64,000 nucleotides of DNA from an uncultured Candidatus Saccharibacteria bacterium (GTDB lineage Bacteria > Patescibacteriota > Andersenbacteria > UBA10190), in assembly GCA_964359735.1 (NCBI GenBank), contig CAYHTZ010000001.1, forward strand, positions 1,457 through 65,456. Reading direction: 5' to 3'. Within the stretch, counting starts at the first letter, position 1, and every line of letters begins with the position of its first letter. Below the pieces are notes generated by a model. The model made no database searches. It saw nothing but the letters and a program-made list of their open reading frames with translations, and was not told the DNA's origin. Positions 2,855-60,296 of this stretch are shown here, in pieces. The position numbers were made by a program, and so were the translations under genes.

Positions 2855-3770
2855 AGATAAATTCGTCTGTCACTTATGCGGAGCAGGCTCGTATAGAGTA
2901 GTTGTTCGAGGAAATACCAGCCGGCAACAGGCGGCGGGACATGGCGAAGTTTCCATGGAGGAGTATACGTGCACCAGCCGGCACCACGGACAATTCTTTC
3001 AGGTGGTGGAGTGTTTGCGCTGCCGCCTACGCTCCCTCTTCCCTCTGCCTCCAGCGCAGGCAGTTGAAGACGCCTACACGCGCGTTAAGGATAGCGAGTA
3101 CCTCTCCATTGAACCTCCGCGTAAAATAGCTTTCACAAAACTTCTGCAGCGGTTAAAGAATTACTCAAAGCCGCCAGGCAAGCTTCTCGATGTCGGCTGC
3201 TACACCGGCGTGTTTCCCTGGCTCGCAGAGCAGCATGGATACGATGCCTACGGAGTGGAGCCAAGCAAGTGGGCTGCAGACATTGCGGCAGAGCGACTGC
3301 CTGGCAGAATTCATCAAGGCTATTTAGAGAACGCTGCGTTTCCATCAGCCTCATTTGATCTGGTGACTTCCTGGGATGTTATCGAGCATGTCACCGACCC
3401 GGCCAAAGAAATTAAGCTCATGGCGGGCCTCCTTAAGCCGAGCGGCTGGCTTTGCCTATCCACCATGGCTTCTGAAGCGCTGATCGTAAAAACCCTCGGC
3501 TCGCGCTGGCCCTGGTACATGCCTATGCACCTTTTCTACTTCACTCCGCAAACATTAAGTGAATTTCTGCGCCGCGCTGGGCTCTCTCCAAAGCGTCCCG
3601 AGCCGTACCCGCACTACACCACTATGTCGTACGTGTTCTGGAAGTTAGAGCCAGCACTTGGGCTACTCGCCCGCGCCTTGTCCCGCAGCGCCAGGCAGTT
3701 GGGGTTTTCAGAGCGGGTTATAAAAATTGACCTAGGAGATTTCTTTCTCATCGCCGCCAAGAAGCAATGA
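2832..3770 (+). CDS. Class I SAM-dependent methyltransferase with N-terminal Cys4 zinc ribbon
   Basis: CHLCGAG...ECLRCRL zinc ribbon; LDVGCYTGVF (motif I); DLVTSWDVIEHV. Confidence 0.65.
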   Translation: MPSEAKSEDKFVCHLCGAGSYRVVVRGNTSRQQAAGHGEVSMEEYTCTSRHHGQFFQVVECLRCRLRSLFPLPPAQAVEDAYTRVKDSEYLSIEPPRKIAFTKLLQRLKNYSKPPGKLLDVGCYTGVFPWLAEQHGYDAYGVEPSKWAADIAAERLPGRIHQGYLENAAFPSASFDLVTSWDVIEHVTDPAKEIKLMAGLLKPSGWLCLSTMASEALIVKTLGSRWPWYMPMHLFYFTPQTLSEFLRRAGLSPKRPEPYPHYTTMSYVFWKLEPALGLLARALSRSARQLGFSERVIKIDLGDFFLIAAKKQ

Positions 3771-5416
3771 TAAAATACTTCTCAATGAACCGCCGCCTCC
3801 GTATCTTTGTTGATGTAACGCTGATTGTAGTGCTAGTAGCTTCCGCTCTTGCCGTCCGCGTCCCTATCGCGCTGGAGAGAAAAATCATGCCGGCCGGCGA
3901 CGTTTTTAACTTGCAACACATTGCCGATTTTATCCTGCGGTTCGACTATCCTAACCGAGAGAACCGTCTCCCAGGCTTCCCAGCCCTTTTGCTGCTAACT
4001 CGACCATTCCCCGTTGACCCAGTCCAAGCTGCGGTAGGCGTTAGCATTGCGCTCTCTTCTCTCATGCTGGCGTGCCTGTATGGCATAGGCCGCACGCTCG
4101 GCATTCACCGTGTGCCGCTTTTCGCCACATTAAGTCTGTCAATTTTTGACCCCCTTCTCACCATTGGCGCCGTGCGGCCGCTGTCCGACGCTACCTTTTT
4201 ATTCTTCTTAAGCCTGTATCTATTTTTGGTTATCCGTGTGCTGGCGGGAGAAGAAGCGCCCGCTAAGCGCTGGCTTGTCTTCATAGGGCTCGCCACTATC
4301 GCCATGATGTTTACTCGATTCGAAGGCGTCGTGGTGGCGGCTTTAACATTGCCACTTCTGTGGTTTAAACTTCCTTGGAAGAAAGTCGTGGCTACCATTG
4401 CGATTCCTTTCGTCACCGGGCTGCTCTGGATACCCGTCCACTTACATATCCACGGCTCTCTAGCCGGAGGGTACATAGCCGCCTTTGCGGACCCGAGCGG
4501 CGATTTTGGCAACCTCAGCACTGTTCCTAGCAAAATCCTCATCATGGTGAAAAGTGCTGGCTGGGGAACAGCATGGACACTTCCTGCATACGAACTCGAG
4601 CAAGAACCAAATGAAGAAGCCCTACAGCGCCTCGTGATCCAGGGCACGTGGTGGCTAAGCATTTTAGCAATACTTGGCATACCTTGGCTGCTCATTACCA
4701 AACGTTCCGCCGCCCTTCCTTTACTCCTAGCAGCTGCTGGGTACATGTGTATCCTCTCTCTTTGGTTCCTCTACAGCCGCTTTGTGGTACCGCTGGTGCC
4801 AATCTTTTATCTCACAGTCGCTGCCGGGGGAAGTTTTCTTATGAGTGCAATTGCAGGCGAGCGCAGCCGTCCAAATTATGGCGACTTAGCGCGCGGCGCG
4901 GGACTCCCAAGCTTAAGTCTTGCGAAGCAAGACGAGCAACGCATGAAAAATCGGAGCCATAATTTGGGGAGGCTGGAAGCGAGCCTCATCCTAGCCACAA
5001 TTTTCTTCGGCTGGATTCTCTGGACTGAGGCACCCCGGTTGTACCACCAAGCCCTCAGCCGCGCTTGGGAAAGCAACCAAAAAGGGTATTCGCTCTTCGA
5101 CGGCCTGCGCCAAACCGCCAAGCTAAAGGAGCCCACAGCTTATTGGACCGAGGCTCATGCCTTCGCCACACTGTATTTGAAAGAACACGGTTTCTACTTT
5201 AACCGTCGCCCTAATGACTCTCCCGAAGAGTTACATGAACTCATGCAGGAAAATAAAATTAAGCACCTCATTAATTCGGGTGACGATACACGCGTTCCCG
5301 AACTCAGAAAGCTCCTCCAAGAGCGCGGCAATGTTGCGTCCACCACCACGTACCGTGCACTCATTTGGGGCGATGGCAGCTTAGAAACAACGGACGTGGA
5401 TCACTTAGTCTGGTGA
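3767..5416 (+). CDS. Polytopic membrane protein, GT-C-like; carries an in-frame copy of the ~130-nt repeat element (family A)
   Basis: 549 aa with many TM segments; contains ERSRPNYGDLARGAGLPSLSLAKQDEQRMKNRSHNLGRLEAS encoded by 4852-4984. Confidence 0.5.
   Translation: MIKYFSMNRRLRIFVDVTLIVVLVASALAVRVPIALERKIMPAGDVFNLQHIADFILRFDYPNRENRLPGFPALLLLTRPFPVDPVQAAVGVSIALSSLMLACLYGIGRTLGIHRVPLFATLSLSIFDPLLTIGAVRPLSDATFLFFLSLYLFLVIRVLAGEEAPAKRWLVFIGLATIAMMFTRFEGVVVAALTLPLLWFKLPWKKVVATIAIPFVTGLLWIPVHLHIHGSLAGGYIAAFADPSGDFGNLSTVPSKILIMVKSAGWGTAWTLPAYELEQEPNEEALQRLVIQGTWWLSILAILGIPWLLITKRSAALPLLLAAAGYMCILSLWFLYSRFVVPLVPIFYLTVAAGGSFLMSAIAGERSRPNYGDLARGAGLPSLSLAKQDEQRMKNRSHNLGRLEASLILATIFFGWILWTEAPRLYHQALSRAWESNQKGYSLFDGLRQTAKLKEPTAYWTEAHAFATLYLKEHGFYFNRRPNDSPEELHELMQENKIKHLINSGDDTRVPELRKLLQERGNVASTTTYRALIWGDGSLETTDVDHLVW
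4852..4984. repeat. Family A structured repeat element (~130 nt), copy 1, in-frame inside CDS 3767..5416
   Basis: About 88% identical to 11950-12083; outer stem ccaaattatgg/ccataatttgg plus inner hairpin gtcttgc-gaa-gcaagac. Confidence 0.8.
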
Positions 5417-6279
5417 TACCACTCCACCGTTCGCCTGATTCCTTCCTCCAATGTAACTCCTGGCTCCCAGGCCAAGAGCCGCTTCGCTTTCGAATTATCG
5501 AGTACCCAGGAATCATCTCCTTTCCCCGGATATGGCGTTACCTGACGGGAGATCTTTTTTCCCGTCACCTGTTCGATCGCTTGCAAAATGTCTTCAAATG
5601 AATGGGCCTCATCTGCCGCGACATTGAATTCTTCATACTTTTCTCCGCTTCTCACCGAAGCTAAAAGATACACCTCCACGACATCATCAATATACGTAAA
5701 ATTGCGTACCAGCGGGCCTACCGAAATAGTAAACGGTGTACCTTCCAGCGCGGCGCGCACCGCCGTTAAAACAAAACGCGAGGGGGAGTCCCCTGGTCCA
5801 AAAACGGGAGACAAGCGCAATACACTGACTGAGATATCGTGTTTTTCAGAGAACAGCCGACAAAAAAACGTGGCCGCAGCCTTCGTCACCGCATAATCAT
5901 CCCACGGAGAGAGCGGCGTATCTTCCGTAATTGGCACGCGGCTGGTCGCATACTCTTTGGCACTGGCCGCAAAAATGAATCTCGTGCACCCATGCTTTAC
6001 TGCTGCTGAGAGCAAGTGATACGTCCCCGTGATATTCACCGCAACCATGCGCGGCACATCTTTTTCATGTCCGAATGTGCCATAGGCCGCCAAGTGAAAA
6101 ATAACTTCAGGCTTTGCCTCCTCCACTGCGCGCTCCACGGCCTCAACATCTGTGATATCTCCCTCCGGCAAAGAAAATGTTGCTACCTCAACCCCTTGCA
6201 CTTGCAACTGTCGAACCAAATGCGCCCCCACAAACCCCGTTGCCCCCGTGACCAGAGCGCGAGTGTACAGCACCTTCAT
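5401..6279 (-). CDS. NAD-dependent epimerase/dehydratase (SDR), possibly an NDP-sugar ketoreductase
   Basis: VTGATGFVGAHLV Rossmann motif; YAVTK catalytic YxxxK. Confidence 0.7.
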   Translation of the reverse strand: MKVLYTRALVTGATGFVGAHLVRQLQVQGVEVATFSLPEGDITDVEAVERAVEEAKPEVIFHLAAYGTFGHEKDVPRMVAVNITGTYHLLSAAVKHGCTRFIFAASAKEYATSRVPITEDTPLSPWDDYAVTKAAATFFCRLFSEKHDISVSVLRLSPVFGPGDSPSRFVLTAVRAALEGTPFTISVGPLVRNFTYIDDVVEVYLLASVRSGEKYEEFNVAADEAHSFEDILQAIEQVTGKKISRQVTPYPGKGDDSWVLDNSKAKRLLAWEPGVTLEEGIRRTVEWYHQTK

Positions 6280-7544
6280 ACAATTTCAATTTCCGGAAAG
6301 GGAATAATGATCTTGGCTCCTTGGTCTCGGTACGGCGATAATTTCTGCAAAATGGCATCGCGAAAGTTATAGGCAAGGAGCAGAAAGTAATCAACTTTTT
6401 CTTCTGCTAGCTTTTCTTCCGGATAAACCGGTATGTGCACACCTGGCATAAAACGGTGTTGCTTTAAGGGAGTACTATCCACCAAGTAATCTATAAGTTC
6501 GCCGTCGATTCTACAGTAATTAAGCAAAATCACACCCTTCGCTGGGGCTGCCACGCCCACTACCTTCTTACCTTGTCTCTTGAGCTTCTGCAGCAGGTTC
6601 CGCAGTCCTACGCGGTAGTCCGCTGCTTGCTTGGCAAATTTTTCGAATGCCTCTCGCTTGTGCAGCCCTGCCGCCCGCTCCTCGCGGACAACTCGCGCGA
6701 CTCCCGGTAAAATCTTGTGCTTTTTGCTCCCTGCATGGGCAACGTAAACGCGCAAACTACCGCCCTGCGTCAACACTTTCTTTACATCAAATACCTTCAT
6801 GTCATGCCCTTCAAAAAACGTGAGTAATGGTTCCAGCGCAAAGAAAGAAAGGTGTTCATGGTAAATCACATCAAAAAACTTCTGCTTAAACATTTCGAGC
6901 AAATGGGCGAATTCAATCACGAAAATTCCCTCGGGTTTAAGTAACTCTTTCACCCCGCTGGCGAAATCGTGAATATCGTTAGTGTGGGCAAAGACATTTG
7001 TAGCCGTGATGATGTCAAATTGCCCGTACTTTTTGCGCATCTTCTTCGCAAGCGCGTGAGAGAAAAACTCAGGCAACACTGTTACCCCCTTGGTCTTGGC
7101 AATGAGCACCACGTTCTTCGCCGGGTCAACACCAAGCGTTTCTGCCCCCAGAGCCTTGAACTCTAAGAGTAACGTGCCATCATTCGCCCCGACGTCGAGT
7201 ACTTTCGTCTTTTTCGTGACTCCGAACCGTTTCTTGCTCTCAGCCGCCAATTCTCGAAAGTGCGTCACCAGCGGCGCAGATGCCGAGGTCAGGTAATGAT
7301 ACGTCCCAAACAGTTTTTCCGGCGGCACGATCTCGTCGATTAAAGCCAAGCCACAGTCTGCACAGCGGCAAAACCGTAAGGGAAATAGCTCTTCCTTCTG
7401 AAAATCTCCTTCCGTTTCGAGGAATTTATTCGGCGCCGGCATCATGCCGAGGTCCAAAATCCTCGTAATTTCCCGTCCTCCACATATGCGGCAGCTGGTC
7501 ACTTTCATGGTGCTGATTGTAGACGGGCTTCCTGGAAACCTCAA
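6276..7544 (-). CDS. NDP-hexose C-methyltransferase family protein (zinc ribbon + SAM MTase + C-methyltransferase C-terminal domain)
   Basis: CRICGG...CRCADCG zinc ribbon; VLDVGANDG; 422 aa with the architecture of the TylC3-like family; 4-nt overlap with the neighbouring SDR. Confidence 0.6.
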   Translation of the reverse strand: MRFPGSPSTISTMKVTSCRICGGREITRILDLGMMPAPNKFLETEGDFQKEELFPLRFCRCADCGLALIDEIVPPEKLFGTYHYLTSASAPLVTHFRELAAESKKRFGVTKKTKVLDVGANDGTLLLEFKALGAETLGVDPAKNVVLIAKTKGVTVLPEFFSHALAKKMRKKYGQFDIITATNVFAHTNDIHDFASGVKELLKPEGIFVIEFAHLLEMFKQKFFDVIYHEHLSFFALEPLLTFFEGHDMKVFDVKKVLTQGGSLRVYVAHAGSKKHKILPGVARVVREERAAGLHKREAFEKFAKQAADYRVGLRNLLQKLKRQGKKVVGVAAPAKGVILLNYCRIDGELIDYLVDSTPLKQHRFMPGVHIPVYPEEKLAEEKVDYFLLLAYNFRDAILQKLSPYRDQGAKIIIPFPEIEIV

Positions 7545-8281
7545 CCGCGGACCGGTTGGAAGACAGGGTCCTTTCTTCCTGCTCTCGCCAGGTGGTAGCG
7601 CGCTAACGTCCAGAGCATCTCGGCCGTGTATTTAATACCTTTGCGCAGACCCATTTGCGTTACGCCCGGCGGGTATTCGCACACCACCGCTATCTCTGTA
7701 ATCGTAAAGCCGTGATAAATCGCCTGCAGAATAGTTTCAAAGCTGAATAAGTGATCATTTGAATTCGCCTCAAAGTTAACTCGCTCCAGGAACGGCCGCG
7801 TATATACGCGAAAGCCCGTCTGAAATTCCGTCAGGCGCGTGCCTAAACTTACGTTCGCAATCCAGGTCAAAATAATGTTCACCACGTACTTAATTAGCGA
7901 CATCCCCGCCTCCCGGGCCGTTCCCCCCTCCATGAGCCGAGAGCCCAGTAACATGCCGTCGGTGGGCTTTAGTGCCGCCAGCACTTTCGAGAGATCCCCG
8001 CCATTATATTGTCCGTCTGCGTGTAACTCAAAAAATATATCGCCGTCTGTCTCTAAAGCTTTTCTCAGCATCCCTTTCATATTGCCGCCATAGCCCAAAT
8101 TACGCTCATTCTGATACACCCGCGCTGGCAAGGTTTTAGCTAATTCAAATGTCTCATTATTATCGGGAGATTTATCATCCACTATAATAACTTCCTCTAC
8201 CAACTCCCGCGGGATTTTCCGAAACGTTTCAACCACACGTTTCCCAGCCCGATACGCCGGCATAAGCACTACAACCTTCAT
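7541..8281 (-). CDS. GT2 polyprenol-phosphate sugar synthase (Dpm1-like); track ORF extends to 8452 but the likely start is MKVVVLMPAY at 8281
   Basis: MKVVVLMPAYRAGK...IIVDDKSPDNN...NLGYGGNMKG...HADGQY. Confidence 0.7.
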   Translation of the reverse strand: MKVVVLMPAYRAGKRVVETFRKIPRELVEEVIIVDDKSPDNNETFELAKTLPARVYQNERNLGYGGNMKGMLRKALETDGDIFFELHADGQYNGGDLSKVLAALKPTDGMLLGSRLMEGGTAREAGMSLIKYVVNIILTWIANVSLGTRLTEFQTGFRVYTRPFLERVNFEANSNDHLFSFETILQAIYHGFTITEIAVVCEYPPGVTQMGLRKGIKYTAEMLWTLARYHLARAGRKDPVFQPVRG

Positions 8282-8309
8282 AAAAACAGTATAAACGTGG
8301 CCTTTAGTC

Positions 8310-9959
8310 TTACAACACCCATCTTGCTTTAGGATCAGAGACGATTTCCTCTTCAGCGCACTGCGGCAATTCAATAAGGTCACCGTCTCTAACTGCATCT
8401 CGCTCCTCCGTCGGCCGCTCGTTCTGCGGCAAACGTTCGAAAATCCAGACATGAGGCAGACCGTTCACAGTCAGCTGCCAGTTACATTTCCCTCGGCCAA
8501 AGTACGCCTGAAGATACCGTATAGATTCATGGCTCGGCCCACGACCGAACATGGTACGGTAAAGAATAACGTATTTGTAATCATCACGATCGTACTCATG
8601 TCCAATTGATTCAGCAATCCCCCCATAAAATTCCCGCAGGACAAACGCATATGCCACGGCGACTGGCGGCGGCTCTTCTCCTTCTAGAACGCCGCCTTGA
8701 ACCCACGCTGCTGCCCGCTCCAACCCCTCGCCCCACCCAAGCTTTTGTTGCGACGTAACGGGGTACAACGGGTTAAAATAGGTCAGATAATATGGGTGAA
8801 TGTAGCTAATATCCCAAGCCAAGATTCCAGCTAACACCAAACCTGCCACGAATGCCACCTTCTCAACTTTCCAACTCCGCGCAAGTTGCGTCACCAGAGA
8901 GGACAACCAGAGTATCCCTCCGGCTGCTACAATATCCGTAACCATAAACCCTAAGAGAAAATAGCGGTCGCTTTTCTGCCCGCTGAATGTAAGCATAACG
9001 CCGTACGCCACCGTACAAACGACCAGGAACAAAATGAGGTTCCTCGCCGGAAACTGCGGCAGGCTCTGATTCCACACCGGGAGTGGAACTTGCTTACTCT
9101 CCCGGTGTGGTCGCCAGGTTAATAGCATTCCTGCTAACCCCACCGCCCCAAACACCACTGCCACCGGCGTCACTCGAAACCACCATTCCCGAAGGTAATA
9201 GAATGGCTCCCCTCCACCCTTGCCTACTTCTGTCTCGGCAAGACTAAGTTTTGAATATTTAGTAATAATCGAAAGTGGCTCTGCTGGTGCAAACACCGTC
9301 GGCCAAATTACGGCGGATACTGCCAGCATGAGAAGAATAATCACTCCCATGCGTTTTCCCTGATGACCGTCTCCAAATCTCTTACTGAAACTGGCTGCCA
9401 ATACGAGAATTGGCAGCCACAAAGCAAAAAACTTAGAGAGAACAGCCAGGGCCGCTGCCGCTGCCGAAATATATAAGTATCGCCGGGAGTGCATCTGCCA
9501 GGCGAGCGCTAACAGCAGCAGCGCCACCAGCATAAACCCGGCTTGTAACGCATCTGTATGCACCAAGCGGCTTTGTGCAATGTGAAATGGATCTAGAGCC
9601 AAGAGCACTCCAGTCAGGACTGCCAAAGGCCAGCCCGCGAGCCGGCCGAGCAAGACTATTGCCATCAGTAAAAGAATGCTCACAGGAATCACAATCGCGG
9701 CCTGTGATGCTTTCCAGGAGTGAAGCTGGTCAGCTATGCCAGCAAATAGCATTGTCGTTACTCCCGGCTGCCCGCCCGAAAATGTCATAGCCGGGTCGAG
9801 CGTGGAAAGCCCCACCACATACCGGTGCGCCCGTCCCCGCCAAATAGGCTCATCGTTTACAATGACACTCCCCAGGTCAGCCAGGCGCGGCCAGAGAACC
9901 AAAAGAACAAGCCCCAGCGCAATCAGAATTGGTTGTAACGATTCATCGCTCGTTCGCAT
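8310..9959 (-). CDS. GT39/ArnT/PMT-like GT-C glycosyltransferase
   Basis: GGQPGVTT...AQSRLVHTDAL motif, many TM segments, C-terminal GWGEGLE domain. Confidence 0.7.
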   Translation of the reverse strand: MRTSDESLQPILIALGLVLLVLWPRLADLGSVIVNDEPIWRGRAHRYVVGLSTLDPAMTFSGGQPGVTTMLFAGIADQLHSWKASQAAIVIPVSILLLMAIVLLGRLAGWPLAVLTGVLLALDPFHIAQSRLVHTDALQAGFMLVALLLLALAWQMHSRRYLYISAAAAALAVLSKFFALWLPILVLAASFSKRFGDGHQGKRMGVIILLMLAVSAVIWPTVFAPAEPLSIITKYSKLSLAETEVGKGGGEPFYYLREWWFRVTPVAVVFGAVGLAGMLLTWRPHRESKQVPLPVWNQSLPQFPARNLILFLVVCTVAYGVMLTFSGQKSDRYFLLGFMVTDIVAAGGILWLSSLVTQLARSWKVEKVAFVAGLVLAGILAWDISYIHPYYLTYFNPLYPVTSQQKLGWGEGLERAAAWVQGGVLEGEEPPPVAVAYAFVLREFYGGIAESIGHEYDRDDYKYVILYRTMFGRGPSHESIRYLQAYFGRGKCNWQLTVNGLPHVWIFERLPQNERPTEERDAVRDGDLIELPQCAEEEIVSDPKARWVL

Positions 9960-10836
9960 ACCCTATAACTAACAAATCTAACGCTTCTTCTAGCCTATCC
10001 TTACCGACCCAAAAGCTCGACAAGGTAACCTCGTCAACATGAGCCTTCTCAGCTCGGTATGACAAAGATTTGATTGCACCTGCACCTAAGGTATAGAGCC
10101 CAAAAACGAGCGGCCGAGGCAGCCACTCTCGTGCACGCAAAAAATCTGCCCGTAGCATCATATCATTAAAATGCTGTTTTGCCCGCTTGTACCTGAGCAC
10201 ACCCTCATTGCCAAACACCCCATACAGTTCAAACCGCGAAAAATGCCTCTTTACAAGATCAGTTAACTGTGCCGGCGTGAGCTCCTTAATATGATACGGA
10301 TTAAACCCGGGAAACCTCTCTGCATTCGGAGTCGTAATAATCACTTCCCCGCCCGAGGCCGCTTGAGCCTTAAGCTGCTGCAAAAACTGGTCTTGGTCTT
10401 GAACATGTTCAACTGTTTGAAAACAGCAGACAACATCGAACTGCTTTTCTTTTATCTCAGAAGGCGGGCTATCGAGCGTCCCAGAGAAAAAAGAAAGATT
10501 CGTAGCTCGATACTTTTGTTTAGCCTCTTGAACTGTACCCGTATGCGGATCCAGCGCCACTACTTCTTGTGCCTGTTGAGCTACATACGCTGCCCCATAC
10601 CCCTCTCCGCTACCCACATCCAAAACACACTTGCCTGCCGCTCGCTGCCGGGCAAAGTCATAAGCAAATAGGCTTTCTTGATAGGTCACGTTAAATTTTC
10701 CACCCGGCAGAATTCGCTCTCCCGTGAACATATATGGTAGCGTAGCATACATGGACCAGGCAGCCTGGCAACATCTTGAAAAGCGTTTCTTCCTGGTTGT
10801 GATAATTATTCTCGTGGTTTTTCTTCTATCTGCCAT
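9943..10836 (-). CDS. Class I SAM-dependent methyltransferase (true start probably internal, about 10752)
   Basis: VLDVGSGEGYGAAYVA motif I; DVVCCFQTVEHV. Confidence 0.6.
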   Translation of the reverse strand: MADRRKTTRIIITTRKKRFSRCCQAAWSMYATLPYMFTGERILPGGKFNVTYQESLFAYDFARQRAAGKCVLDVGSGEGYGAAYVAQQAQEVVALDPHTGTVQEAKQKYRATNLSFFSGTLDSPPSEIKEKQFDVVCCFQTVEHVQDQDQFLQQLKAQAASGGEVIITTPNAERFPGFNPYHIKELTPAQLTDLVKRHFSRFELYGVFGNEGVLRYKRAKQHFNDMMLRADFLRAREWLPRPLVFGLYTLGAGAIKSLSYRAEKAHVDEVTLSSFWVGKDRLEEALDLLVIGYANER

Positions 10837-12524
10837 TGGAGAAAACCGGGTACAGCGCGCTGACCCGAATTATCAACCGATTGGCCGGGGCTATTAACTG
10901 TATGGCGTCGGACACCCCCCAAGTGCGCCAACTTGTTATCGCTCTTCTTGTTATTGCTGTCTTCCTGCCCAGGCTCACTTCGTTGGGCACCATGCTTACG
11001 GTTGATGAAGGCTTATGGCGCGGCCGTGGTGAACAGTTTATCAAATCATTTGCCTCTGGCCATTTTAACAAAACCTTGGTAGCTGGGCAGCCTGGCGTTA
11101 CTACCGCCTGGCTCGCCGGTCTAAGCCTTCCCTGGCGCTCTCTCGCTTCTGCCCAAGCGGCAATCGCAGTCACATGTGGCGCACTCATTCTTCTAATCAC
11201 GTATTCTTTGAGCCGCCTCTGGGGATTTTGGTGGGGGATGGCCAGCGGATTTCTCCTTGCGCTCGACCCCTTCCTACTCGCTCACAGCCGCCTCGTTCAC
11301 ACCGATGCCCTCTTCGCTCTTTTTTATTTAGCAAGCCTGCTATGGCTGCTCCTTGCCCTTGAGCCGGCCTGGCAAGCAGGACTGCCGAGCCGCCGTCACA
11401 TAGTAATCAGCGGCATTTTGGGGGGACTGGCGTTACTGACCAAAATATTTACGACCATACTTATCCCGACCGTCACCTGTATTTTTCTCTTAGCCGCATG
11501 GCGCAGCCGCAAGCACCTTGGGGAAACTTTCCGATCAGGAATTATCTGGCTCGTCGCCGTCGTACTAACCACACTTGCCCTCTGGCCCGCACTTTGGACC
11601 GCGCCTGACCAAGTGGCCCAGTACTTGACCGGCCGCGCTACATTGCATGTGGCCGAGGGCACCCACGTGGGCGAAACCACCGCCACCTGGTGGTACTACG
11701 GCCGGGAAAGTATTTTCCGCCTGAGCGCCATAACCACTCTTCTTCTCATTCCCGCGGCCATCGCTGCTTTCAAATCTCGAGATCGCATGTGGCGCACCGC
11801 TCTGATTCTGCTCATCAGCGGCATCGCATTTGCAATCGTTCTCAGCTTCAGCAGCGAAAAGAGCGACCGGTATATTTTAATTTCACTGCTTACGCTGGAT
11901 CTCTTTGCGGTAATGGGGCTGAGGAAAATAAATGAATGGGTTAGTTATCTGCAGAGCGAGCGCAGCCGTCCAAATTCTGGCGACTTAGCGCGCGGCGCGG
12001 GACTCCCAAGCTATAGCCCTGCGCAAGCAGGGCGAACAACGCAAGAAAATCGGAGCCAGGATTTGGGGAGGCTGGAAGCGAGCGATGGAGCGAGGAAAAC
12101 GACTGGGTGGGTTGCGCCAACTATCGCAATAACCCTTCTCGCCATCGGTGCGGCGCGAATCCATCCATACTATCTGGCGCATCACAACGCCCTCTACCCC
12201 GTGGAAGAACGTCACAAGTTAGGTTGGGGCGAGGGATTAGAACAAGCTGCGCAGTGGATTAAGAAACAAGGCTACACAGGCAAAATCGCCAGCTATTACG
12301 CCGGGGTGATGAAGTATTGGTATCCCGGCCCCGTCGATCCCTTAAACCACATTGACGGCACGAGCGCACGCTACATTGTTCTCTACCGCTCTATGTTTGA
12401 ACGCGGCCCCGGCCACGTCGACACCGAAATCGTTGCGGAGTACCTCGACAACGCATCCCGCCAACCCGCCCATATTATTTCTATCAACAACCTCCCCTAC
12501 GTTTGGATATTCGAGAGGGAATAA
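10836..12524 (+). CDS. GT39/ArnT/PMT-like GT-C glycosyltransferase carrying family A element copy 2
   Basis: AGQPGVTTAW...AHSRLVHTDAL...KLGWGEGLEQ; contains SERSRPNSGDLARGAGLPSYSPAQAGRTTQENRSQDLGRLEAS; track start is TTG. Confidence 0.7.
   Translation: MEKTGYSALTRIINRLAGAINCMASDTPQVRQLVIALLVIAVFLPRLTSLGTMLTVDEGLWRGRGEQFIKSFASGHFNKTLVAGQPGVTTAWLAGLSLPWRSLASAQAAIAVTCGALILLITYSLSRLWGFWWGMASGFLLALDPFLLAHSRLVHTDALFALFYLASLLWLLLALEPAWQAGLPSRRHIVISGILGGLALLTKIFTTILIPTVTCIFLLAAWRSRKHLGETFRSGIIWLVAVVLTTLALWPALWTAPDQVAQYLTGRATLHVAEGTHVGETTATWWYYGRESIFRLSAITTLLLIPAAIAAFKSRDRMWRTALILLISGIAFAIVLSFSSEKSDRYILISLLTLDLFAVMGLRKINEWVSYLQSERSRPNSGDLARGAGLPSYSPAQAGRTTQENRSQDLGRLEASDGARKTTGWVAPTIAITLLAIGAARIHPYYLAHHNALYPVEERHKLGWGEGLEQAAQWIKKQGYTGKIASYYAGVMKYWYPGPVDPLNHIDGTSARYIVLYRSMFERGPGHVDTEIVAEYLDNASRQPAHIISINNLPYVWIFERE
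11950..12083. repeat. Family A structured repeat element, copy 2, in-frame inside CDS 10836..12524
   Basis: Aligned to 4852-4984; inner hairpin gccctgc-gcaa-gcagggc has two compensatory base-pair changes relative to copy 1. Confidence 0.8.
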
Positions 12525-14891
12525 CTATTTCCTTCGATACAATCGAAATGGCTCTTCGGTGAGGTCATTGGGAACTTCGTCGACGAGTTCAAACTGCTCA
12601 CTCAGGATTTTTTGTCGCTCGGGGAAGTCGTCAAAATAAATTTCGCTGGTGCGCTCGTCGGTGACTACAAAACGGACGTCACGTTCGAGCCAGCGCGTTA
12701 TCTCCTCATCCTCAGCAAAGTAAATCTTGCGCAATTCTGGCGGTATGCCGCCAACCCGCGCTGCGCGGATCCACCCCGGGTGCGAGTATCCTCGAATAAT
12801 TCTGCGCTTGGCTGCAGCTGTCACCACCGGCTGGGCCGTGAATATTTCTTCTTCAGCAGACACATGCTCTTGTAAAAGATACGTCATCTCCTGAACCGAC
12901 TCCGGGGTAACAGTCCCCGAGATCGGGTGGTGAAGAACCACATTCACTCCCTGCCACCAGCTGGCTGCCAAAAGCCCTGCCAACACTCCCTGCGCCAGTG
13001 GCCGCCGAAAAAGCTGGGGGATTCCCTGCGCCAAAGCCACTGCGGCCAGTATCGCCGCTGGGGGGAGAAACTCTACAATGTAACTGGGCCGGAACATGCC
13101 CCACCCGCGGTAGAGAAGTACCAGCGCCGAAAGCCACACCACGCATACCACTGCCCATTTCCATCCTCCCTGCATAACTGTATCAGGAGCACGAGACTGC
13201 AATCGTTGTAAAAGCCACCAGGCTGGGATCCCAAACACAATGGCCAACATAGTAAAGCGCACCAGCGGCAACGAGCCCGGCAAACCATAGCCAATATCAA
13301 CGAGGTGGTAGATAGATACTCCCAAGATGGCCACCCAAACTCCGATGCCAAGCCACCTCAATGCGTCATTTTTAATACGACTCAACAGCAAAAGTGGCAG
13401 CCAAACAATACCAGCCAAGATCCAACCTCCTGCTCGCCACAATACTGTTGACGCTTCTGTTACCCACCGAATAACCGGCTCTACCCCACCCACTCTCTCT
13501 GTTTGAAGCCTGCCTACCGTAACCGCCTCAATATTGAGCATTACCGATACTTTCGCTGCATCCATCAAAAGCAGCGCAATACCGCTTACAAGAGCCATAG
13601 CAATGATTCCTGCTGCTACATACGCCCCTAAGTCCCGCCAGCGGCGTTGTGAAAATAAAAGTAAAAGCACGGCACCAGCTATACCTACGGCCACCGTGCT
13701 CGAGCGCGTAAGATACCCCACTGTCATGAGTAACCCTCCCAAACCGACAAGCCACACGCGATTCTCTTTCGACCCTTTCAGAAGTACAAGAACAGCCACC
13801 ACCGCAAAGAGCGTGCTCACCACTTGCAGGAGCAGCGGCGCTGAAGCGCTCACCACACCAGGGAGAAGCGCCAAGAGTGCCGCGGTTATGACCTGAACAG
13901 AGGCTGTCTGCCCAAACCGACGTGCGAGAAGCGCTGAAAAGCCCACCACTCCCGCCCAAAACAGCGCCGACAAGAGCCGCCAACCCGCCAGCACATCCGG
14001 CGTAATTTCTCGCCATATTTTAAGAAGGACAACATAGATTGGCCCCTTCGTCAGAAAATCTCGAAATGGTAGCAGGTCCGTAGAAGCTTGAAAAGCATCT
14101 TGAAGATAGGCTCCCTCATCAATGATCACGGGCGCATTATGCGAACGCCACACATGAAACACGATTGTTAAAATCATGAGAACTCCTATCCAGACAGATG
14201 CCGGTAATGTATACGTCTGCAACTTTCGCGCAAACACTGCGAAGCTAACCGCGACCACCACAAAAACAGCCAGCGACTGCTTCTCCCAGGGTGTAAGACT
14301 TTGAATCAACTGGTGTCCAACTCGCCGATACGTTCGGTCAATCCCAACTTGTTGAAACGCATAGTTGCCAGTCACCTTATTTCCTACGATGAATGCAGTG
14401 CCTTCGGGAAAAGCAGAGGCATCGAGTTCACGGTACACCCAGTAGGCATTGTGAGGGCCGTGAGGAGCTTCTAAAACCCACAAGAGCTTCGGGCCAGCTT
14501 CATGAATAGGGGGAAAGGTAAACACAAGGTCTTCAGTCTCCGGTTCAGGCTCAAAGATGACTGCCGCACGCACATCATCCCCAAAATACTCCCGTCGGAT
14601 GTGCAGAATCAGCGGCCCCTTTGCGCCCACATTCCTACCTACAGGCACGCGCACCTCTCGCATCCCAGGCAGCGGCACAAATACTTGTCCTACTGACTTC
14701 TCCCGGCCAAAGGTTACCTTCGCCGAATCATTGAAAGGTGCCAAAACTTCTTGCGATTGCTCCTGGGGAGACAGCAAGAACAGCACGGCTAAAACCGCCA
14801 AAACAGCGCCAACCACAACTACCGGGCGGCGCTGCAAAAAATTCACCATCGATATACGTTCACCGCTTCTGCGCATAAATCTCAAATTCAT
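12525..14891 (-). CDS. Large membrane protein: N-terminal soluble beta-rich domain plus polytopic GT-C-like region
   Basis: 788 aa; signal-anchor then soluble domain then more than 10 TM segments; abuts the convergent gene with back-to-back stops TAACTA. Confidence 0.5.
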   Translation of the reverse strand: MNLRFMRRSGERISMVNFLQRRPVVVVGAVLAVLAVLFLLSPQEQSQEVLAPFNDSAKVTFGREKSVGQVFVPLPGMREVRVPVGRNVGAKGPLILHIRREYFGDDVRAAVIFEPEPETEDLVFTFPPIHEAGPKLLWVLEAPHGPHNAYWVYRELDASAFPEGTAFIVGNKVTGNYAFQQVGIDRTYRRVGHQLIQSLTPWEKQSLAVFVVVAVSFAVFARKLQTYTLPASVWIGVLMILTIVFHVWRSHNAPVIIDEGAYLQDAFQASTDLLPFRDFLTKGPIYVVLLKIWREITPDVLAGWRLLSALFWAGVVGFSALLARRFGQTASVQVITAALLALLPGVVSASAPLLLQVVSTLFAVVAVLVLLKGSKENRVWLVGLGGLLMTVGYLTRSSTVAVGIAGAVLLLLFSQRRWRDLGAYVAAGIIAMALVSGIALLLMDAAKVSVMLNIEAVTVGRLQTERVGGVEPVIRWVTEASTVLWRAGGWILAGIVWLPLLLLSRIKNDALRWLGIGVWVAILGVSIYHLVDIGYGLPGSLPLVRFTMLAIVFGIPAWWLLQRLQSRAPDTVMQGGWKWAVVCVVWLSALVLLYRGWGMFRPSYIVEFLPPAAILAAVALAQGIPQLFRRPLAQGVLAGLLAASWWQGVNVVLHHPISGTVTPESVQEMTYLLQEHVSAEEEIFTAQPVVTAAAKRRIIRGYSHPGWIRAARVGGIPPELRKIYFAEDEEITRWLERDVRFVVTDERTSEIYFDDFPERQKILSEQFELVDEVPNDLTEEPFRLYRRK

Positions 14892-23351: not shown

Positions 23352-24809
23352 CTAGTTAGCAACTACTTGAAAGTGAGCAAGCTCTGGGCAGAGGTCGCCG
23401 GGGTCGGGTTGCTTGGCATCACGGTAATGCACAAGCCACTCGGCATGGGAACTGTCGTCTTGAGGTACGACCTTAAGGTCAGAATACCCATGGCTCAAAA
23501 ACTGCAACCGGTTCCAAATGTGCACGTTTTCGGAGGAAACTGGGCCGGCACCGCGTAGACACTCTATGAGCGGACGCGTATCCACCAAAGCTGCAGCGCT
23601 ATCCGTGCGGTTTCCCAGCGAAAAATCCGCCGTGCTGCCGCCAGTTTTAAGAAATGGAATCAAAACAACAAAAGCAGACCAACCTACTAAAACTATAGAA
23701 AACAAAATAGGTATCCCCCACTTTACGCTCCCGGAGCGTAAAGTGGGGAAAGATTCAATTAAAGTTCCCAACCCCACCCCCGCCAACATCCACGCCGCTA
23801 TCACAAACATGACAAAGTAGCGCAATGTGAACCGGTCGATCATGTATAGCAGAACAGCAAGATGAATAATCATCCCGAGCAGCCACAGCAGCACCACTTT
23901 GCGCGGCCGCACGAGTAAGACGGCGGCTAATCCCAAAAGAGCTATCACTGCTGTAACTACCCAAACAACCGCCGGCGCGAACTCTACCCCTGTATATCGC
24001 GCTACGTATGAAGATCCAGATAAAACAAGTGGCAAAAGCCTAGGCAAATCGGCCAGGCGCTCCCAAAAACTCTGCGCCACTTCCACCACATCCCCTTGAT
24101 CTTCCCGAAAACTCAACAACACCCATAATTGCAGCGCGAATCCCGCAGCAAAGCCAGCAAATGCTAGTAAAGTGGACAGAACTTTTCTGCCCACTGAAAG
24201 AGCTTTCCGCAACCATAATACCAACGTTCCCGCCACTACAACTGCTGTCAGAGTTGGTAAGAACAAAATATGGTTAGAGAGAGCTATTCCGGCCGCGAAT
24301 CCTGCCAGCAACACCCGCACCGGCCTGCTCGCCGAAGCTTTAGGGAAAGCCGGCTCCCCCAGTAACCACAAAATCAGAAAGAAGAAAAAAGGGAACAATG
24401 CAATTGCCCAACCGATTCGCTCCTGGGTTAGGTATATAGGATTAAAAAACCCAAACACAAGCGCAAAAAGTGCTTGAGCTTGTCCCCCGCTCTCCGCTCC
24501 AAAAGCTCTCAGAAACACACAGGCAGCCAACCAAAAAGCCGCAAAAGATGCGAGCACCACCACGAGCCGTAATGCCAGGGGTGTATAACCAAACCCCAGA
24601 ATAAATGGCACGCGCGCATAATCAATAAGAGGCCCTATATACGATCGCTCACCCTGCACCACAAACTTTTCTGATTGTAACAGCTCGTACACATTTTCGC
24701 CCTCTGAGGCTTCATCCCCCATGAGCCCGGGCACGCTGTGTAAGAATGCCGCGTTCGCCGCTACAAAAATTCCGAATAAAATCCACACCGTTTTCCAGTA
24801 CGCACCCAT
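23352..24809 (-). CDS. Polytopic membrane protein, GT-C (PMT_2/ArnT)-like
   Basis: 485 aa, more than 10 TM segments, first periplasmic loop rich in D/E. Confidence 0.45.
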   Translation of the reverse strand: MGAYWKTVWILFGIFVAANAAFLHSVPGLMGDEASEGENVYELLQSEKFVVQGERSYIGPLIDYARVPFILGFGYTPLALRLVVVLASFAAFWLAACVFLRAFGAESGGQAQALFALVFGFFNPIYLTQERIGWAIALFPFFFFLILWLLGEPAFPKASASRPVRVLLAGFAAGIALSNHILFLPTLTAVVVAGTLVLWLRKALSVGRKVLSTLLAFAGFAAGFALQLWVLLSFREDQGDVVEVAQSFWERLADLPRLLPLVLSGSSYVARYTGVEFAPAVVWVVTAVIALLGLAAVLLVRPRKVVLLWLLGMIIHLAVLLYMIDRFTLRYFVMFVIAAWMLAGVGLGTLIESFPTLRSGSVKWGIPILFSIVLVGWSAFVVLIPFLKTGGSTADFSLGNRTDSAAALVDTRPLIECLRGAGPVSSENVHIWNRLQFLSHGYSDLKVVPQDDSSHAEWLVHYRDAKQPDPGDLCPELAHFQVVAN

Positions 24810-24833: not shown

Positions 24834-26771
24834 ATGCCCCAGTGGGAATTTATCGTCGAAGTTACGCAGCATCTCTGGCCGGGGCTATTCGCCGCATTGG
24901 CCTTTGCTCTGGGAGCAGTCGTCATCCATATCCTCCCCAAATACAAATGGCTGGCCGCCGCCATTCTTATAGTGGCCATTACGCCTGTGGCCATACCTGG
25001 TTTCTGGATCTCCAGCGCTGACTTAGGCATTTCCGACTGGGACCAGTACTTTTCCCACTACCACTACTTGCGACGCATCATTACGGAATTTAAAGAATTC
25101 CCCCTTTGGAACCCGTGGATGTGCGGCGGCACCGCCGCGTGGGGAGACCCTGAGTTCACCGGCTTCTCCCCTACCTTTCTAGCCGTTCTCGCTCTCGGCG
25201 TTGAACGGGGCTTGAAACTCATCATCTACATCGCCACTATCGTGGGCGCACTGGGCATGCTCATGCTGGGAAAGCGCCTAGGTTTTTCCGTATACGCCGC
25301 GCTCCTGGCCGCCATAGGAGTGACATTCAGCAGCGTCAACTTGCTCGAAATCGTCGAAGGCCACCCTAATATTTTCTCGGCCATGTGGATTCCGTGGATA
25401 TTCTGGTCGTGGCTGGCTGCATACCGATCAGCAAGTGATCGGCGGAAAGCAAGCGTCTGGTCAATAATCTGCGGCATCTTCTTAGCACTGACATTCTTCC
25501 AGGGCGGCATTTATCTTTTGTCGTATACCACGCTTGCATTTCTGGTTTTGATACTGCTGGCCTCTAATCATAAGCAAGCTTTCTTAGTTACTCTGAAGTC
25601 TGGGCTTTGGGCGCTGGGCTTTGCCGGAATCAAGCTCATTCCCGCGCTCTTCTGGCTCTCCCAATTTCCGGACAAAACCTACGCGGGATCTACGTACACA
25701 TTGCCCTATTTGCACCACGTTCTCTTTGGCCGCTACTTGCACAGCCATGGCGACCCAAAAGGAATTATTCCGAATCAAGGCAGCGGCTGGCATGAATACG
25801 GCGCTTATATCGGCCCATTCATCGGCGCTCTTGCTTTGATTGGCCTTACCAAAATCCGCAAAACTCGCATCGTCCTTGCGCTAGCCATAGCAGCGATCCT
25901 TGCCATTATACTCTCCTCGGCTGGTCCAGTACTCAAATCTGTCTTTGATCAAATCCCCTTCATCCCGCGCTCCAATATCTCGCGCGTGATTCTCTTCGCC
26001 GTGATTCCCCTGGCCCTCCTCGCGGGATATGGTCTCGATGTTTTGCGGGAGCGCGCCAGTCGAAAATGGGTAGCAGCCTTGTTCTCAGTTGCACTCCTTA
26101 CATATGTTGCTGGTGACCTATTCACGCTCTCTCAGCAGCTGTCTCAACAGGCCTTCGTGATCCCGTACCCCGAGATTCCCATCTCGCCTGCACCAGCTCC
26201 CATTGCCCACCTTACCCACACATACGAATATCGCCACCATGGCGTTGATTACACGCGAGCGTACGCCGCCAGCCTCCAGGGCTACGGCACCAACGCGCAT
26301 TGTACGGTCTTAGGACCTCCACAAACCATCCGGACCATTCACGATAAAGAAAACTTCGGTCCTGTTCTACAGAATGAGCGACTCGTCATTCTTAATATCC
26401 AGTGGGCACCCAGCCAAGTCACCACTCGTGTCCAAGCGCTCAAGCCGCCGCCGAACAGCCCATGGGGCGCCGGTGTTCAACTCAACACCAATTATGCGAA
26501 AGGCTGGTGGGTAGAGTTCGAAGGGGACGACACCCCAAAACCGGCTCAAAATCTTGAAGGACATGTCGGCACATTTGCCCCTCTCGGAGAGCATACCATG
26601 ACGTTTTACTACCGCCCCCGCGGCATGTGGGCAGGCATCGTTGTCAGTGCTCTCACCATCCTTAGCGCGATCATTTGGGGAGCCGGTAAGCGACGTCACG
26701 GCCAGGCAGAGACGTTCCGTTCTTCACCATCTCCCCCGCCGCCAGATCCGAGTTCGCAAACCGCACCGTAA
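24834..26771 (+). CDS. YfhO-family-like membrane protein
   Basis: EFPLWNPWMCGGTAAWGDPEFTGFSPTF is homologous to the N-termini of 16005 and 17971; 645 aa. Confidence 0.55.
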   Translation: MPQWEFIVEVTQHLWPGLFAALAFALGAVVIHILPKYKWLAAAILIVAITPVAIPGFWISSADLGISDWDQYFSHYHYLRRIITEFKEFPLWNPWMCGGTAAWGDPEFTGFSPTFLAVLALGVERGLKLIIYIATIVGALGMLMLGKRLGFSVYAALLAAIGVTFSSVNLLEIVEGHPNIFSAMWIPWIFWSWLAAYRSASDRRKASVWSIICGIFLALTFFQGGIYLLSYTTLAFLVLILLASNHKQAFLVTLKSGLWALGFAGIKLIPALFWLSQFPDKTYAGSTYTLPYLHHVLFGRYLHSHGDPKGIIPNQGSGWHEYGAYIGPFIGALALIGLTKIRKTRIVLALAIAAILAIILSSAGPVLKSVFDQIPFIPRSNISRVILFAVIPLALLAGYGLDVLRERASRKWVAALFSVALLTYVAGDLFTLSQQLSQQAFVIPYPEIPISPAPAPIAHLTHTYEYRHHGVDYTRAYAASLQGYGTNAHCTVLGPPQTIRTIHDKENFGPVLQNERLVILNIQWAPSQVTTRVQALKPPPNSPWGAGVQLNTNYAKGWWVEFEGDDTPKPAQNLEGHVGTFAPLGEHTMTFYYRPRGMWAGIVVSALTILSAIIWGAGKRRHGQAETFRSSPSPPPPDPSSQTAP

Positions 26772-36699: not shown

Positions 36700-37710
36700 T
36701 TATTCTCCCAGACTCTTTTTGGGAATGAGATAATTCTGCACATAATCAGCAATGGCATCCTCCAGCTCCGTCATCTCTTCTCCATAGCCAGTGGCTCTGA
36801 GTTTAGAAATATCCGCCTGGGTAAAATTCTGGTACTGGTTTTTCAAGTTGGCCGGCATATCCACGTAGCGAATGTTCGGCATTTTCCCCACCGCGAAAAA
36901 CATCGCCCTCGCCACGTCGTTCCAACTCCTGGCTTTGCCAGTACCAACATTGTATATACCCGCGGCCTCGCGGTGATCCAGTAACCACAAAGTAGCAGCT
37001 AGTACATCTTTAATGTAAATGAAGTCTCGCTTCTGCTCGCCATCACCGAAGTCGGGGTGGTTCGACTTAAAGAGCTCAACCACTCCCTCCTGCTGCATCT
37101 GGTGAAACTTCTTAAACGGCACGCTAGCCATTTCTCCCTTGTGGTACTCATTAGGTCCAAACACATTAAAGTAGCGCACCCCCGCCACTCCGCCAGTTGG
37201 CGGATTGAGGTAGCCCCCGTCCCGCGCCCAAATATCTACCAGCAACTTGGATTTCCCATACAGGTTGAGCGGCACCAGTTCCCCAAAGAGAGCATGGTCA
37301 TCGCTGTATCCCCGCGCGCCATCGCCGTAGGTTGCCCCGCTTGAGGCATATACGCAGCGCGCCCCGCGGTCTGAACACCAGCGGATAATATCCTTAGAAT
37401 ACTCAACGTTATTATCCAACAAGTATTCCCAGTCCGTTTCCGTTGTACTGCTACATGCCCCCATGTGCAGTATGGCTTCGATGCCTGCCCCGCGAAGCCT
37501 CGGTGAAGTGGGGTCGTAATCGCCTGCCCGCAGCCTTTCTCGAAATTCTTTGATTCCAACCAACTCCTCATACTTGAGCGGAGCAATGTTGCACTCCTTC
37601 TCGTCGTGACCAACATCGTCTACCAAGAGAATATTGCTTTCTCCGCGCTCGTTTAAAGCCCATAACAGCGCCGAGCCGATAAAGCCCGCCGCGCCAGTGA
37701 TAACAATCAT
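36700..37710 (-). CDS. hldD: ADP-L-glycero-D-manno-heptose 6-epimerase (HldD/RfaD); carries a family B insertion
   Basis: MIVITGAAGFIGSAL...ILHMGACSSTTE...YASSGATYG aligns along its length with E. coli HldD; ATGA overlap with the upstream gene; track ORF extends to 37803. Confidence 0.75.
   Translation of the reverse strand: MIVITGAAGFIGSALLWALNERGESNILLVDDVGHDEKECNIAPLKYEELVGIKEFRERLRAGDYDPTSPRLRGAGIEAILHMGACSSTTETDWEYLLDNNVEYSKDIIRWCSDRGARCVYASSGATYGDGARGYSDDHALFGELVPLNLYGKSKLLVDIWARDGGYLNPPTGGVAGVRYFNVFGPNEYHKGEMASVPFKKFHQMQQEGVVELFKSNHPDFGDGEQKRDFIYIKDVLAATLWLLDHREAAGIYNVGTGKARSWNDVARAMFFAVGKMPNIRYVDMPANLKNQYQNFTQADISKLRATGYGEEMTELEDAIADYVQNYLIPKKSLGE
37484..37514. repeat. Family B element, copy 5, in-frame in hldD (encodes PTSPRLRGAG)
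   Basis: cctgccccgcgaagcctcggtgaagtgggg. Confidence 0.8.
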
Positions 37711-54137: not shown

Positions 54138-54166
54138 AGCATTCAGTATATATCAGTTTTGAATTT

Positions 54167-54195
54167 CCTGCCCCGCGAAGCTTCAGCGAAGTGGG
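54167..54195. repeat. Family B element, copy 6, overlapping the 3' end and stop codon of the GT4 gene
   Basis: cctgccccgcgaagcttcagcgaagtgggg; host frame reads ...T P L R TGA. Confidence 0.8.
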
Positions 54196-59825: not shown

Positions 59826-60296
59826 AGGCGAGGTAGGTGGATGGTCGCTCCTCGCGAGTCGAGGGGAGGAAAGTCCGGACACCTGTGTTCCTTTGAACAT
59901 ATCGTGGTGGCAGGTAACGCCTGCCGGGCGCAAGCCCAGGGAAAGTGCAACAGAAACATACCGCCCTTCGACAAAACCTCAGGGTAAACTGAGCAAGTTT
60001 ACTCTGAGCGAGGCGAAAGCCGAGTCGAAGAGCAATGGTGAAATCGTGAGGTAAGAGCTCACGCATTACGGCAGTAATGCCGCGATGGTGCAAACCCCAC
60101 CTGGTGCAACTTCAAGCAGCCCCGCACCCTTGTGAAATGACAAGGGTGCGGGGCGGGTAGAAGGCAAACTGTTCTGTAGCTCGTCATGACGCTAGAGAAC
60201 GACGAAGCCTGCCGCGAGGCAGGCTCCAGAGAGATGATCATTCATGACCCCGCCTCGGCGGGGCAAGACAGAATCCGGCTTATAGCCTACCTCAGA
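59826..60296 (+). ncRNA. rnpB: RNase P RNA, bacterial type A
   Basis: P4 strands GGAAAGTCCGGAC and ACAGAATCCGGCTTA; GGCAGGTAACGCCTGCC; AGTGCAACAGAAA; GGTAAGAGCTCAC; P1 pairing gaggtaggt/acctacctc; possible TTGACA -35 at about 59797. Confidence 0.8.

Follow-up and report, generated by a model that had tools for sequence, protein, structure and literature searches.

How did a palindromic sequence of about 130 nt come to lie in frame inside two membrane-protein genes of a patescibacterial genome, and what has kept it alike in both? We analyzed a 64,000-nt stretch of contig CAYHTZ010000001.1 (assembly GCA_964359735.1), hereafter the window, in which an earlier reading of the letters (the original prediction) had noted this repeat, family A, and had likened it to Rickettsia palindromic elements (RPEs), to miniature transposable elements with inverted repeats (MITEs) or to a structured RNA module. 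Family A is real. Its sequence family had not been described before, but it belongs to a known kind of repeat and does not amount to a new type of system. It is probably a small non-autonomous hairpin-forming repeat of the RPE or intragenic-MITE kind, tolerated in the loops and linkers of its host proteins.

Two copies of one hairpin-forming unit

The two window copies, c1 and c2, were found to be 89.9% identical across the repeat (blastn, E about 1e-34), while their flanks, compared over 90 nt per side, were 42-50% identical, which is the random level. The claim of near-identical copies in unrelated flanking sequence was therefore borne out, with the limits refined as listed below. Patterns of 21-23 nt from the ends occurred exactly twice in the window against none expected, and shuffled sequences gave none. 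Repeat finding, short-word blastn and the covariance model detected no third copy in the 64 kb. A segment at 26658-26695 (66% over 38 nt) had been considered as a third copy; it was missed by both blastn and the covariance model and was dropped as a chance match.

4856..4984, plus strand: family A copy 1 (c1), full length, 129 nt or 43 codons; covariance model 145.5 bits, E 6e-30
4857..4862, plus strand: 5' terminal GCGAGC of c1; an identical hexamer closes the element at 4979-4984
4864..4882, plus strand: 5' arm of the c1 long stem, CAGCCGTCCAAATTATGGC; partner, the 3' arm at 4956-4975
4889..4908, plus strand: two small side hairpins of c1, GCGC-GCG-GCGC and GGG-ACT-CCC
4917..4933, plus strand: inner 7-bp hairpin of c1, GTCTTGC GAA GCAAGAC
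4956..4975, plus strand: 3' arm of the c1 long stem, GCCATAATTTGGGGAGGCTG; partner, the 5' arm at 4864-4882
11955..12083, plus strand: family A copy 2 (c2), full length, 129 nt; covariance model 147.6 bits, E 2e-30
11963..11981, plus strand: 5' arm of the c2 long stem; partner, 12055-12074
12016..12033, plus strand: inner hairpin of c2, GCCCTGC GCAA GCAGGGC
12055..12074, plus strand: 3' arm of the c2 long stem; partner, 11963-11981

The unit is thus a 129-nt sequence with GCGAGC at both ends and two arms of ~20 nt, which form a long stem enclosing three small hairpins. The long-range self-complementarity of an RPE-like palindromic element is therefore present, as a ~20-bp stem with three small hairpins. 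The outer and inner stems described in the original prediction are part of the minimum-energy fold of both copies. The outer stem reads CCAAATTATGG/CCATAATTTGG in c1 and CCAAATTCTGG/CCAGGATTTGG in c2, the difference being one A-T to C-G change and one G-U pair. In the inner stem, GTCTTGC-GAA-GCAAGAC of c1 corresponds to GCCCTGC-GCAA-GCAGGGC of c2; the two fully compensatory substitutions claimed for this stem were confirmed.

Both copies are read in frame and without stops, c1 as residues 364-406 of the open reading frame (ORF) at 3767..5416 and c2 as residues 374-416 of the ORF at 10836..12524. The original prediction gave one peptide for both copies. This needs correcting for its middle third, where two compensating 1-nt indels shift the frame of one copy relative to the other.

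Further copies and conservation of the fold

A scan of metagenome contigs with a back-translated query returned only c1 and one further copy, c3; homologues of the c1 host protein (host 1) and of asparagine synthase led to further contigs. The retrieved contigs are labeled L003-L013, L013 being a longer version of the contig that carries c3 and c4. The search for more copies called for by the original prediction yielded seven additional copies or remnants, with pairing kept, in the same metagenome-assembled genome (MAG) and in related metagenome contigs.

c3: interdomain linker of asparagine synthase (AsnB), Hainich groundwater, 111 nt
c4: 613-aa GT39-like protein on the same contig as c3, a diverged composite copy
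c5: L004:2054-2134, site orthologous to c1, 81 nt, sample SRR22388241
c7: asparagine synthase gene, L009/L010 set, a different sample, full copy of 129 nt
c8: asparagine synthase gene, L009/L010 set, a further sample, 5' part fused to another hairpin
c9: L011:7063-7139, site orthologous to c4, 77 nt, sample SRR22388241
L007:8699-8751: family A 3' remnant, site orthologous to c2

The contig with c3 and c4 was placed in the same NCBI MAG as the window by the neighboring accessions MEK7556425 and MEK7556976, both labeled Patescibacteria group bacterium; ~81 kb of this genome was covered. The covariance model R1 returned exactly this copy set at E <= 2e-4. An antisense match of the model at L005:11771-11816 (E 1.6) lay in conserved coding sequence and was taken as chance. 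Family A occupies four host genes: two encode GT-C glycosyltransferases that are remote from each other, another encodes a further GT39-like protein, and the last an asparagine synthase. Because asparagine synthase is unrelated to the membrane-protein hosts, the possibility that only two copies exist, in recent paralogues, is excluded. The complete copies are 129, 129, 129, 111 and 81 nt long, all multiples of three, and c9 measures 77 nt between its conserved ends with the host frame still open. GCGAGC was kept at both ends of every complete copy found, and the arms are complementary in all of them, as are the terminal inverted repeats of MITEs.

The structure was assessed on five complete copies from three genomes (alignment A8) with a 34-pair model. 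In this set, 94% of the stem cells were paired as opposed to 30-46% when the partners were slid by 1-3 columns, and 13 of the 34 pairs were changed on both sides; none of 500 shuffles reached the observed values. RNAalifold, run without a supplied structure, returned the same helices and likewise 13 compensated pairs, and the covariation check on more copies was in this way passed. The strongest single case of compensatory change is c7, whose basal stem has been fully rewritten from CAGCC/GGCTG to CCGGCGGAG/CTCCGCCGG with pairing retained. Its inner hairpin reads GTCCCGC-GAA-GCGGGAC, and the first side hairpin of c1 (GCGC-GCG-GCGC) has double changes in c7 and c3. As RNA, c1 and c2 gave z-scores of -4.0 and -3.4, with 0 of 200 shuffles equally stable; five of six copies fell between -3.2 and -6.4, and c9 reached +0.6. 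Single-stranded DNA gave weaker values (-0.7 to -4.5), and antisense folds were nearly as stable as sense folds. On the sense strand G-U pairs outnumbered A-C mismatches by 8 to 1 when counted as cells and by ~5 to 1 when counted as independent events. An Rfam search of the window returned only RNase P at the gathering score, and nothing meaningful was matched by family A at E up to 10.

Family A is conserved at the nucleotide level and not at the peptide level. The conserved 3' end, CTGGAAGCGAGC, is translated as LEAS in c1, c2, c3 and c5 but as WKRA in c9. Together with the frame-shifted middle of c1 and c2, this use of another frame indicates that it is the nucleotides that are conserved. 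Substitutions were paired across the stem and were not concentrated at third codon positions. A HMMER profile of the 44-aa peptide, searched against 1.84 billion representative proteins, gave only two weak, repetitive and unrelated matches. A word-index protein search with the same peptide gave no candidate, which probably reflects a limit of the index, as the collection includes the host protein itself.

Host genes, insertion sites and age of the copies

The host genes of c1 and c2, and a paralogue that serves as an internal control, are as follows.

3767..5416, plus strand: host gene 1, a 549-aa membrane protein without a Pfam hit, predicted GT-C glycosyltransferase fold
10836..12524, plus strand: host gene 2, a 562-aa PMT_2 / GT39-like glycosyltransferase (Pfam); its insert lies in the loop that precedes the last transmembrane helix
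8310..9959, minus strand: paralogue of host 2 without the insert, 37% identical to host 2

The AlphaFold model of host 1 (mean predicted local distance difference test score, pLDDT, 77) matched STT3/PglB, DPY19, ALG12, AftB and ArnT in Foldseek at E values down to 4e-7. In hhalign, host 1 and the host 2 family profile aligned with a probability of 77% at 21% identity, and the alignment stopped just before the insert in both. As judged from these models, the two hosts are remote GT-C homologues that carry the insert in an equivalent loop before the last transmembrane helix, so that the word "unrelated" in the original prediction has to be replaced by "remotely related". At only 21% identity, common descent of the hosts cannot account for a 129-mer that is 90% identical. 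In the host 1 model the insert sits in a low-confidence loop between confident helices at 343-363 and 385-435, with pLDDT below 50 at residues 366-383. Host 1 may represent an unannotated GT-C family, judging from its predicted fold; about twenty metagenome contigs carry homologues of 35-70% identity, and in each of them the gene belongs to the same glycosylation cluster. Its protein is recorded in European Nucleotide Archive assemblies of groundwater from the Hainich well H51 (0.1 um fraction) and is named 'hypothetical protein AAB538_00425 [Patescibacteria group bacterium]' by NCBI.

Insertion-free or nearly insertion-free orthologues had been proposed as a comparison, and such orthologues, with the site empty or reduced, were found, in addition to the insert-free paralogue of host 2. 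Family A thus lies in frame and free of stops in different genes for which insert-free relatives exist, as in the RPE-like class. The L005 orthologue is shorter at the site and keeps an 8-bp inverted repeat, CCAGCCAT/ATGGCTGG, a 5' fragment of family A persists in the L007 orthologue, and the L011 orthologue has a 3' end with 17 of 21 bases matching. The L005 repeat, at 12676-12720 in the site orthologous to c2, is perfect, surrounds an A/T-rich spacer and looks like the lowest part of the family A stem, a hint that decay proceeds by deletion of the hairpin interior. More generally, the shortened copies were read as decay by internal deletion, with the intact ORFs showing that these deletions preserved the reading frame.

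At each of the four loci, other species carry a full, shortened or vestigial copy; between these species identity is 54-78% for the host proteins and 60-80% for the flanking DNA. Since all four loci are shared, the insertions predate these species and are old and inherited, not recent jumps. The arms follow a different pattern. Within the Hainich genome the arms of c1, c2 and c3 are 90-97% identical, as against 66-81% for orthologous pairs. The interior of c3 is like that of its orthologue c7 (GGGAATCCTTAATGT), while its arms are like those of c1 and c2, and c5 and c9, which come from one sample and different loci, have a derived 5' arm in common (90%). These comparisons, made on a small data set with contigs assigned to genomes by sample, suggest concerted evolution or re-seeding of occupied sites. 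For the Hainich trio, though not for c5 and c9, the pattern could alternatively reflect ancestral arms that evolved slowly in one lineage.

A separate in-frame module, termed c6-type, was observed at L004:7885-7975 and at L003:1105-1192 (= L013:8792-8879), with a covarying stem of its own (GACAGC/GCTGTC vs CAGCAG/CTGCTG). It occupies the same loop as c2 in one species and is nested within c4 in another, which suggests that several repeat families reuse these host loops.

Origin of family A and competing explanations

According to the explanation we favor, family A would have spread within a lineage of groundwater Patescibacteria, originally by transposition with an enzyme supplied in trans. 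Copies would have survived only where they did little harm, that is, in gene parts that code for loops or linkers, and translation in one consistently open sense frame would add about 43 hydrophilic residues to the host protein. The hairpin may have been kept because that enzyme, a conversion process or the mRNA needs it, and copies within one genome would exchange sequence or be re-seeded, so that their arms stay alike.

Among known systems, RPEs are the closest functional match. They insert in frame in Rickettsia genes (PMC10969869, citing Ogata 2000). The likeness extends to a long-hairpin repeat of ~100-150 bp placed in frame in unrelated protein-coding genes, a hydrophilic peptide segment at fold-compatible positions, no transposase of its own, inheritance at orthologous sites across species with decay, and a small, reduced genome (PMC10969869). 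Family A differs in belonging to Patescibacteria, in its invariant GCGAGC ends, in having fewer copies so far (4 in ~81 kb, all in glycosylation clusters), in arms that are more alike per genome than between orthologues and in parts that are read in different frames; the likeness shown is one of function and anatomy, and membership in the RPE sequence families of Rickettsia (RPE-1 to RPE-10) is not claimed.

REP doublets forming hairpins (REPINs), which are mobilized by REP-associated tyrosine transposases (RAYTs), resemble family A in their ~100-nt hairpin with two inverted conserved arms and a less conserved spacer, in compensatory changes, in vertical persistence in a lineage and in within-genome sequence populations (PMC3116915, PMC8266576); compensatory changes are common in REPIN hairpins (PMC3116915). 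Y1_Tnp genes with flanking hairpins also occur in related contigs, although their hairpin, TTACCACATCCGATGTGGTAA, differs from family A. However, REPINs are extragenic, present in hundreds of copies and tied to RAYTs, whereas the copies of family A all lie inside genes and are few, with 2 in the 64-kb window, and no Y1 transposase flanked by family A was found in L011, L012, the window or L013; family A thus departs from REPINs in all three respects. The Y1_Tnp genes are syntenic in the related contigs L011 and L012 and encode 223-aa proteins (PF01797, HUH motif HFH) at L011:3437-4108 (minus), L011:14024-14695 (plus) and L012:3574-4245 (minus). The hairpin (G)TTACCACATCCGATGTGGTAAC stands on both sides of the L012 gene and of the first L011 gene, a RAYT/IS200-like arrangement. 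Both gene and hairpin were absent from the window and from the syntenic Hainich place (L013 about 5221-5860). Y1_Tnp was considered as the mobilizer of family A and is not supported, because its hairpin is unrelated to family A and because gene and hairpin are absent from the Hainich contigs.

With MITEs (ERIC, Correia, Coxiella QMITE1) family A has in common small size, terminal inverted repeats, no transposase coding, occasional in-frame fusion with host ORFs and possible transcription as structured RNA (PMC10969869, PMC5896051, PMC3184786). Typical MITEs are mostly intergenic and have variable target-site duplications and a recognizable parent insertion sequence, and neither duplication nor parent was found for family A. 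Mobile GC clusters or double-hairpin elements in fungal mitochondrial genes are likewise short hairpin repeats that are inserted in coding regions and translated in frame or tolerated; theirs is an organellar setting with much shorter units and no sequence relation to family A.

Several observations weigh against a mobile origin. None of 47 window ORFs scanned against Pfam was a transposase or reverse transcriptase, and none represented a parent element with matching ends. Target-site duplications were looked for, as the original prediction had advised, and no variable one was found at the family A copies. The only flanking repeat is the invariant GCGAGC, whose period of 122 nt is not a multiple of three; a simple duplication therefore cannot account for it where the insert is in frame. 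The prediction of an RPE- or MITE-like mobile element consequently stands as regards the palindromic in-frame repeat, while the mobility itself is inferred. No presence/absence polymorphism was seen among Hainich assemblies, in which the replicates were identical. Every occupied site is occupied or vestigial elsewhere, so that nothing shows recent movement, and the copy number is low, all four copies in the ~81 kb lying in one type of gene cluster. All copies are sense-oriented, and the loops that hold c1 and c2 correspond to each other in two remote homologues, which would agree equally with a function in mRNA or protein. No intact-end copies were detected in 185,579 GTDB species genomes by a stem-anchor scan and a general-ends scan; two scans of IMG/VR and a search of phages gave zero, and plasmids gave one 35-nt chance match. 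The spread of family A is therefore documented within this lineage only.

What, then, could have produced and kept such a repeat if not transposition? It is possible, though unlikely, that family A is a cis-acting mRNA hairpin kept for the host, through ribosome slowing at domain or helix boundaries or through mRNA stability, its spread among genes being secondary. The sense orientation of every copy, the excess of sense G-U pairs over A-C mismatches, the stronger z-scores of RNA than of single-stranded DNA, the sites before a last transmembrane helix or at a domain boundary and the persistence across species would all agree with this. The orientation bias, however, comes from no more than four independent sites, and of the antisense frames just one is open. 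The almost equal stability of antisense folds and the lack of an Rfam match also speak against it, and close orthologues in L005, L006, L011 and L012 do without the element or retain scraps only. Moreover, copies have shrunk to 111, 81 and 77 nt, and the last of these, c9, folds no better than shuffled sequences. Distinctly unlikely, in our estimate, is a further reading in which family A, and perhaps a second window repeat (D1, described below), forms a replicator population that has long lived inside genes and co-evolves with a genome-specific trans-acting factor, or has been co-opted as a translation-pacing mRNA fold. It would draw on the homogenization of arms per genome, on interiors that follow orthology, on the invariant GCGAGC ends and on a stem that survives full rewriting. 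The fold would pace translation at helix and domain boundaries. This would amount to a REPIN-like symbiosis relocated into coding sequence, because these tiny genomes have almost no intergenic space.

We consider it improbable that no transposition took place and that gene conversion among paralogues has kept alike what began as an old loop sequence of GT-C glycosyltransferases. In favor of this, c1, c2 and c4 all have GT-C or PMT_2-like hosts, c1 and c2 sit in equivalent loops, and arms from one genome resemble each other more than those of orthologous copies do; yet the element is also present in asparagine synthase, an unrelated cytoplasmic enzyme, and c4 lies at a different position of its protein. 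The random identity of the c1 and c2 flanks leaves no anchor for conversion, and the paralogue at 8310..9959 in the window is without the element. Selection at the protein level for a peptide module, for example a motif for sorting, modification or interaction, with nucleotide similarity as a by-product, is highly improbable. All copies do have a common frame at the 5' end, with SERSRPNxGDLxRG-like peptides, but the frame changes in the c1/c2 middle and at the c9 3' end largely refute it, as do stem-paired substitutions without a bias to third codon positions, the lack of a convincing homologue among the 1.84 billion proteins and the low model confidence of the region. Diversity-generating retroelements are common in this phylum, and their repeats of ~100-150 nt are ~90% identical. 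That c1 and c2 are template and variable repeats of such a retroelement, or an assembly or binning artefact, is barely conceivable. Their mismatches involve all four bases, are not confined to adenine and are paired across stems, the copies lie mid-gene and not at a C-terminal variable region, and the Pfam scan of the window ORFs revealed no reverse transcriptase. An artefact is contradicted by the identity of c1 in two independent replicate assemblies and by orthologous copies in other samples. The mismatch pattern, missing signature sequences, the lack of an Rfam hit and stop-free read-through ruled out a retroelement pair, an attC-like site, an intron and a bypass element.

The features of note in family A are its old, vertically inherited in-frame copies and the apparent within-genome homogenization of its arms. 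A large part of bacterial diversity falls in Patescibacteria, whose genomes are very compact and whose repeat content is almost undescribed; the literature searched gave no report linking them to MITE- or REP-like elements. In these genomes small hairpin repeats persist inside genes and add peptide segments to envelope glycosyltransferases and asparagine synthase, and family A has lasted through speciation with its fold kept by compensatory change. In these organisms such inserts both inflate and blur protein families, alignments and structure predictions, and they offer markers by which lineages can be followed in groundwater metagenomes. Should the within-genome homogenization be real, family A would offer a tractable case for the maintenance of repeat populations in minimal genomes.

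The second repeat family, D1, is a hairpin of ~30 nt with a conserved center, GCGAAGCYTYRGCGAAG, and a covarying outer stem. Its eight window copies, all in one orientation and seven of them within long minus-strand ORFs, are as follows.

24323-24356, plus strand: D1 copy
27538-27571, plus strand: D1 copy
27750-27783, plus strand: D1 copy
31011-31044, plus strand: D1 copy
31332-31365, plus strand: D1 copy
37483-37516, plus strand: D1 copy
54166-54199, plus strand: D1 copy
55880-55913, plus strand: D1 copy

D1 is translated in two frames, as xHFAKASRGx / PAFAKASAGR or as PTSLKLRGAG / PTSPRLRGAG, and these peptides had no match in the literature searched. The other strand reads ARRSLGEGG, which is present in asparagine synthase orthologues, and D1 is fused to family A at L010:1543-1575.

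The window as a whole is a cell-envelope glycosylation region with many PMT_2/GT39-like membrane proteins, GT2 and GT4 transferases, methyltransferases and sugar-nucleotide enzymes, and it also contains genes for LepA, MurJ, RecJ, enolase and RNase P RNA. The RNase P RNA (59829-60298, plus strand) is of bacterial class A and measures 470 nt against a model of 367 positions, with extra hairpins of ~49 nt and ~37 nt in two helices that have no similarity to family A or D1. GC skew is negative over all 64 kb and the genes lie mostly on the minus strand; both family A hosts are among the few plus-strand genes of the window.

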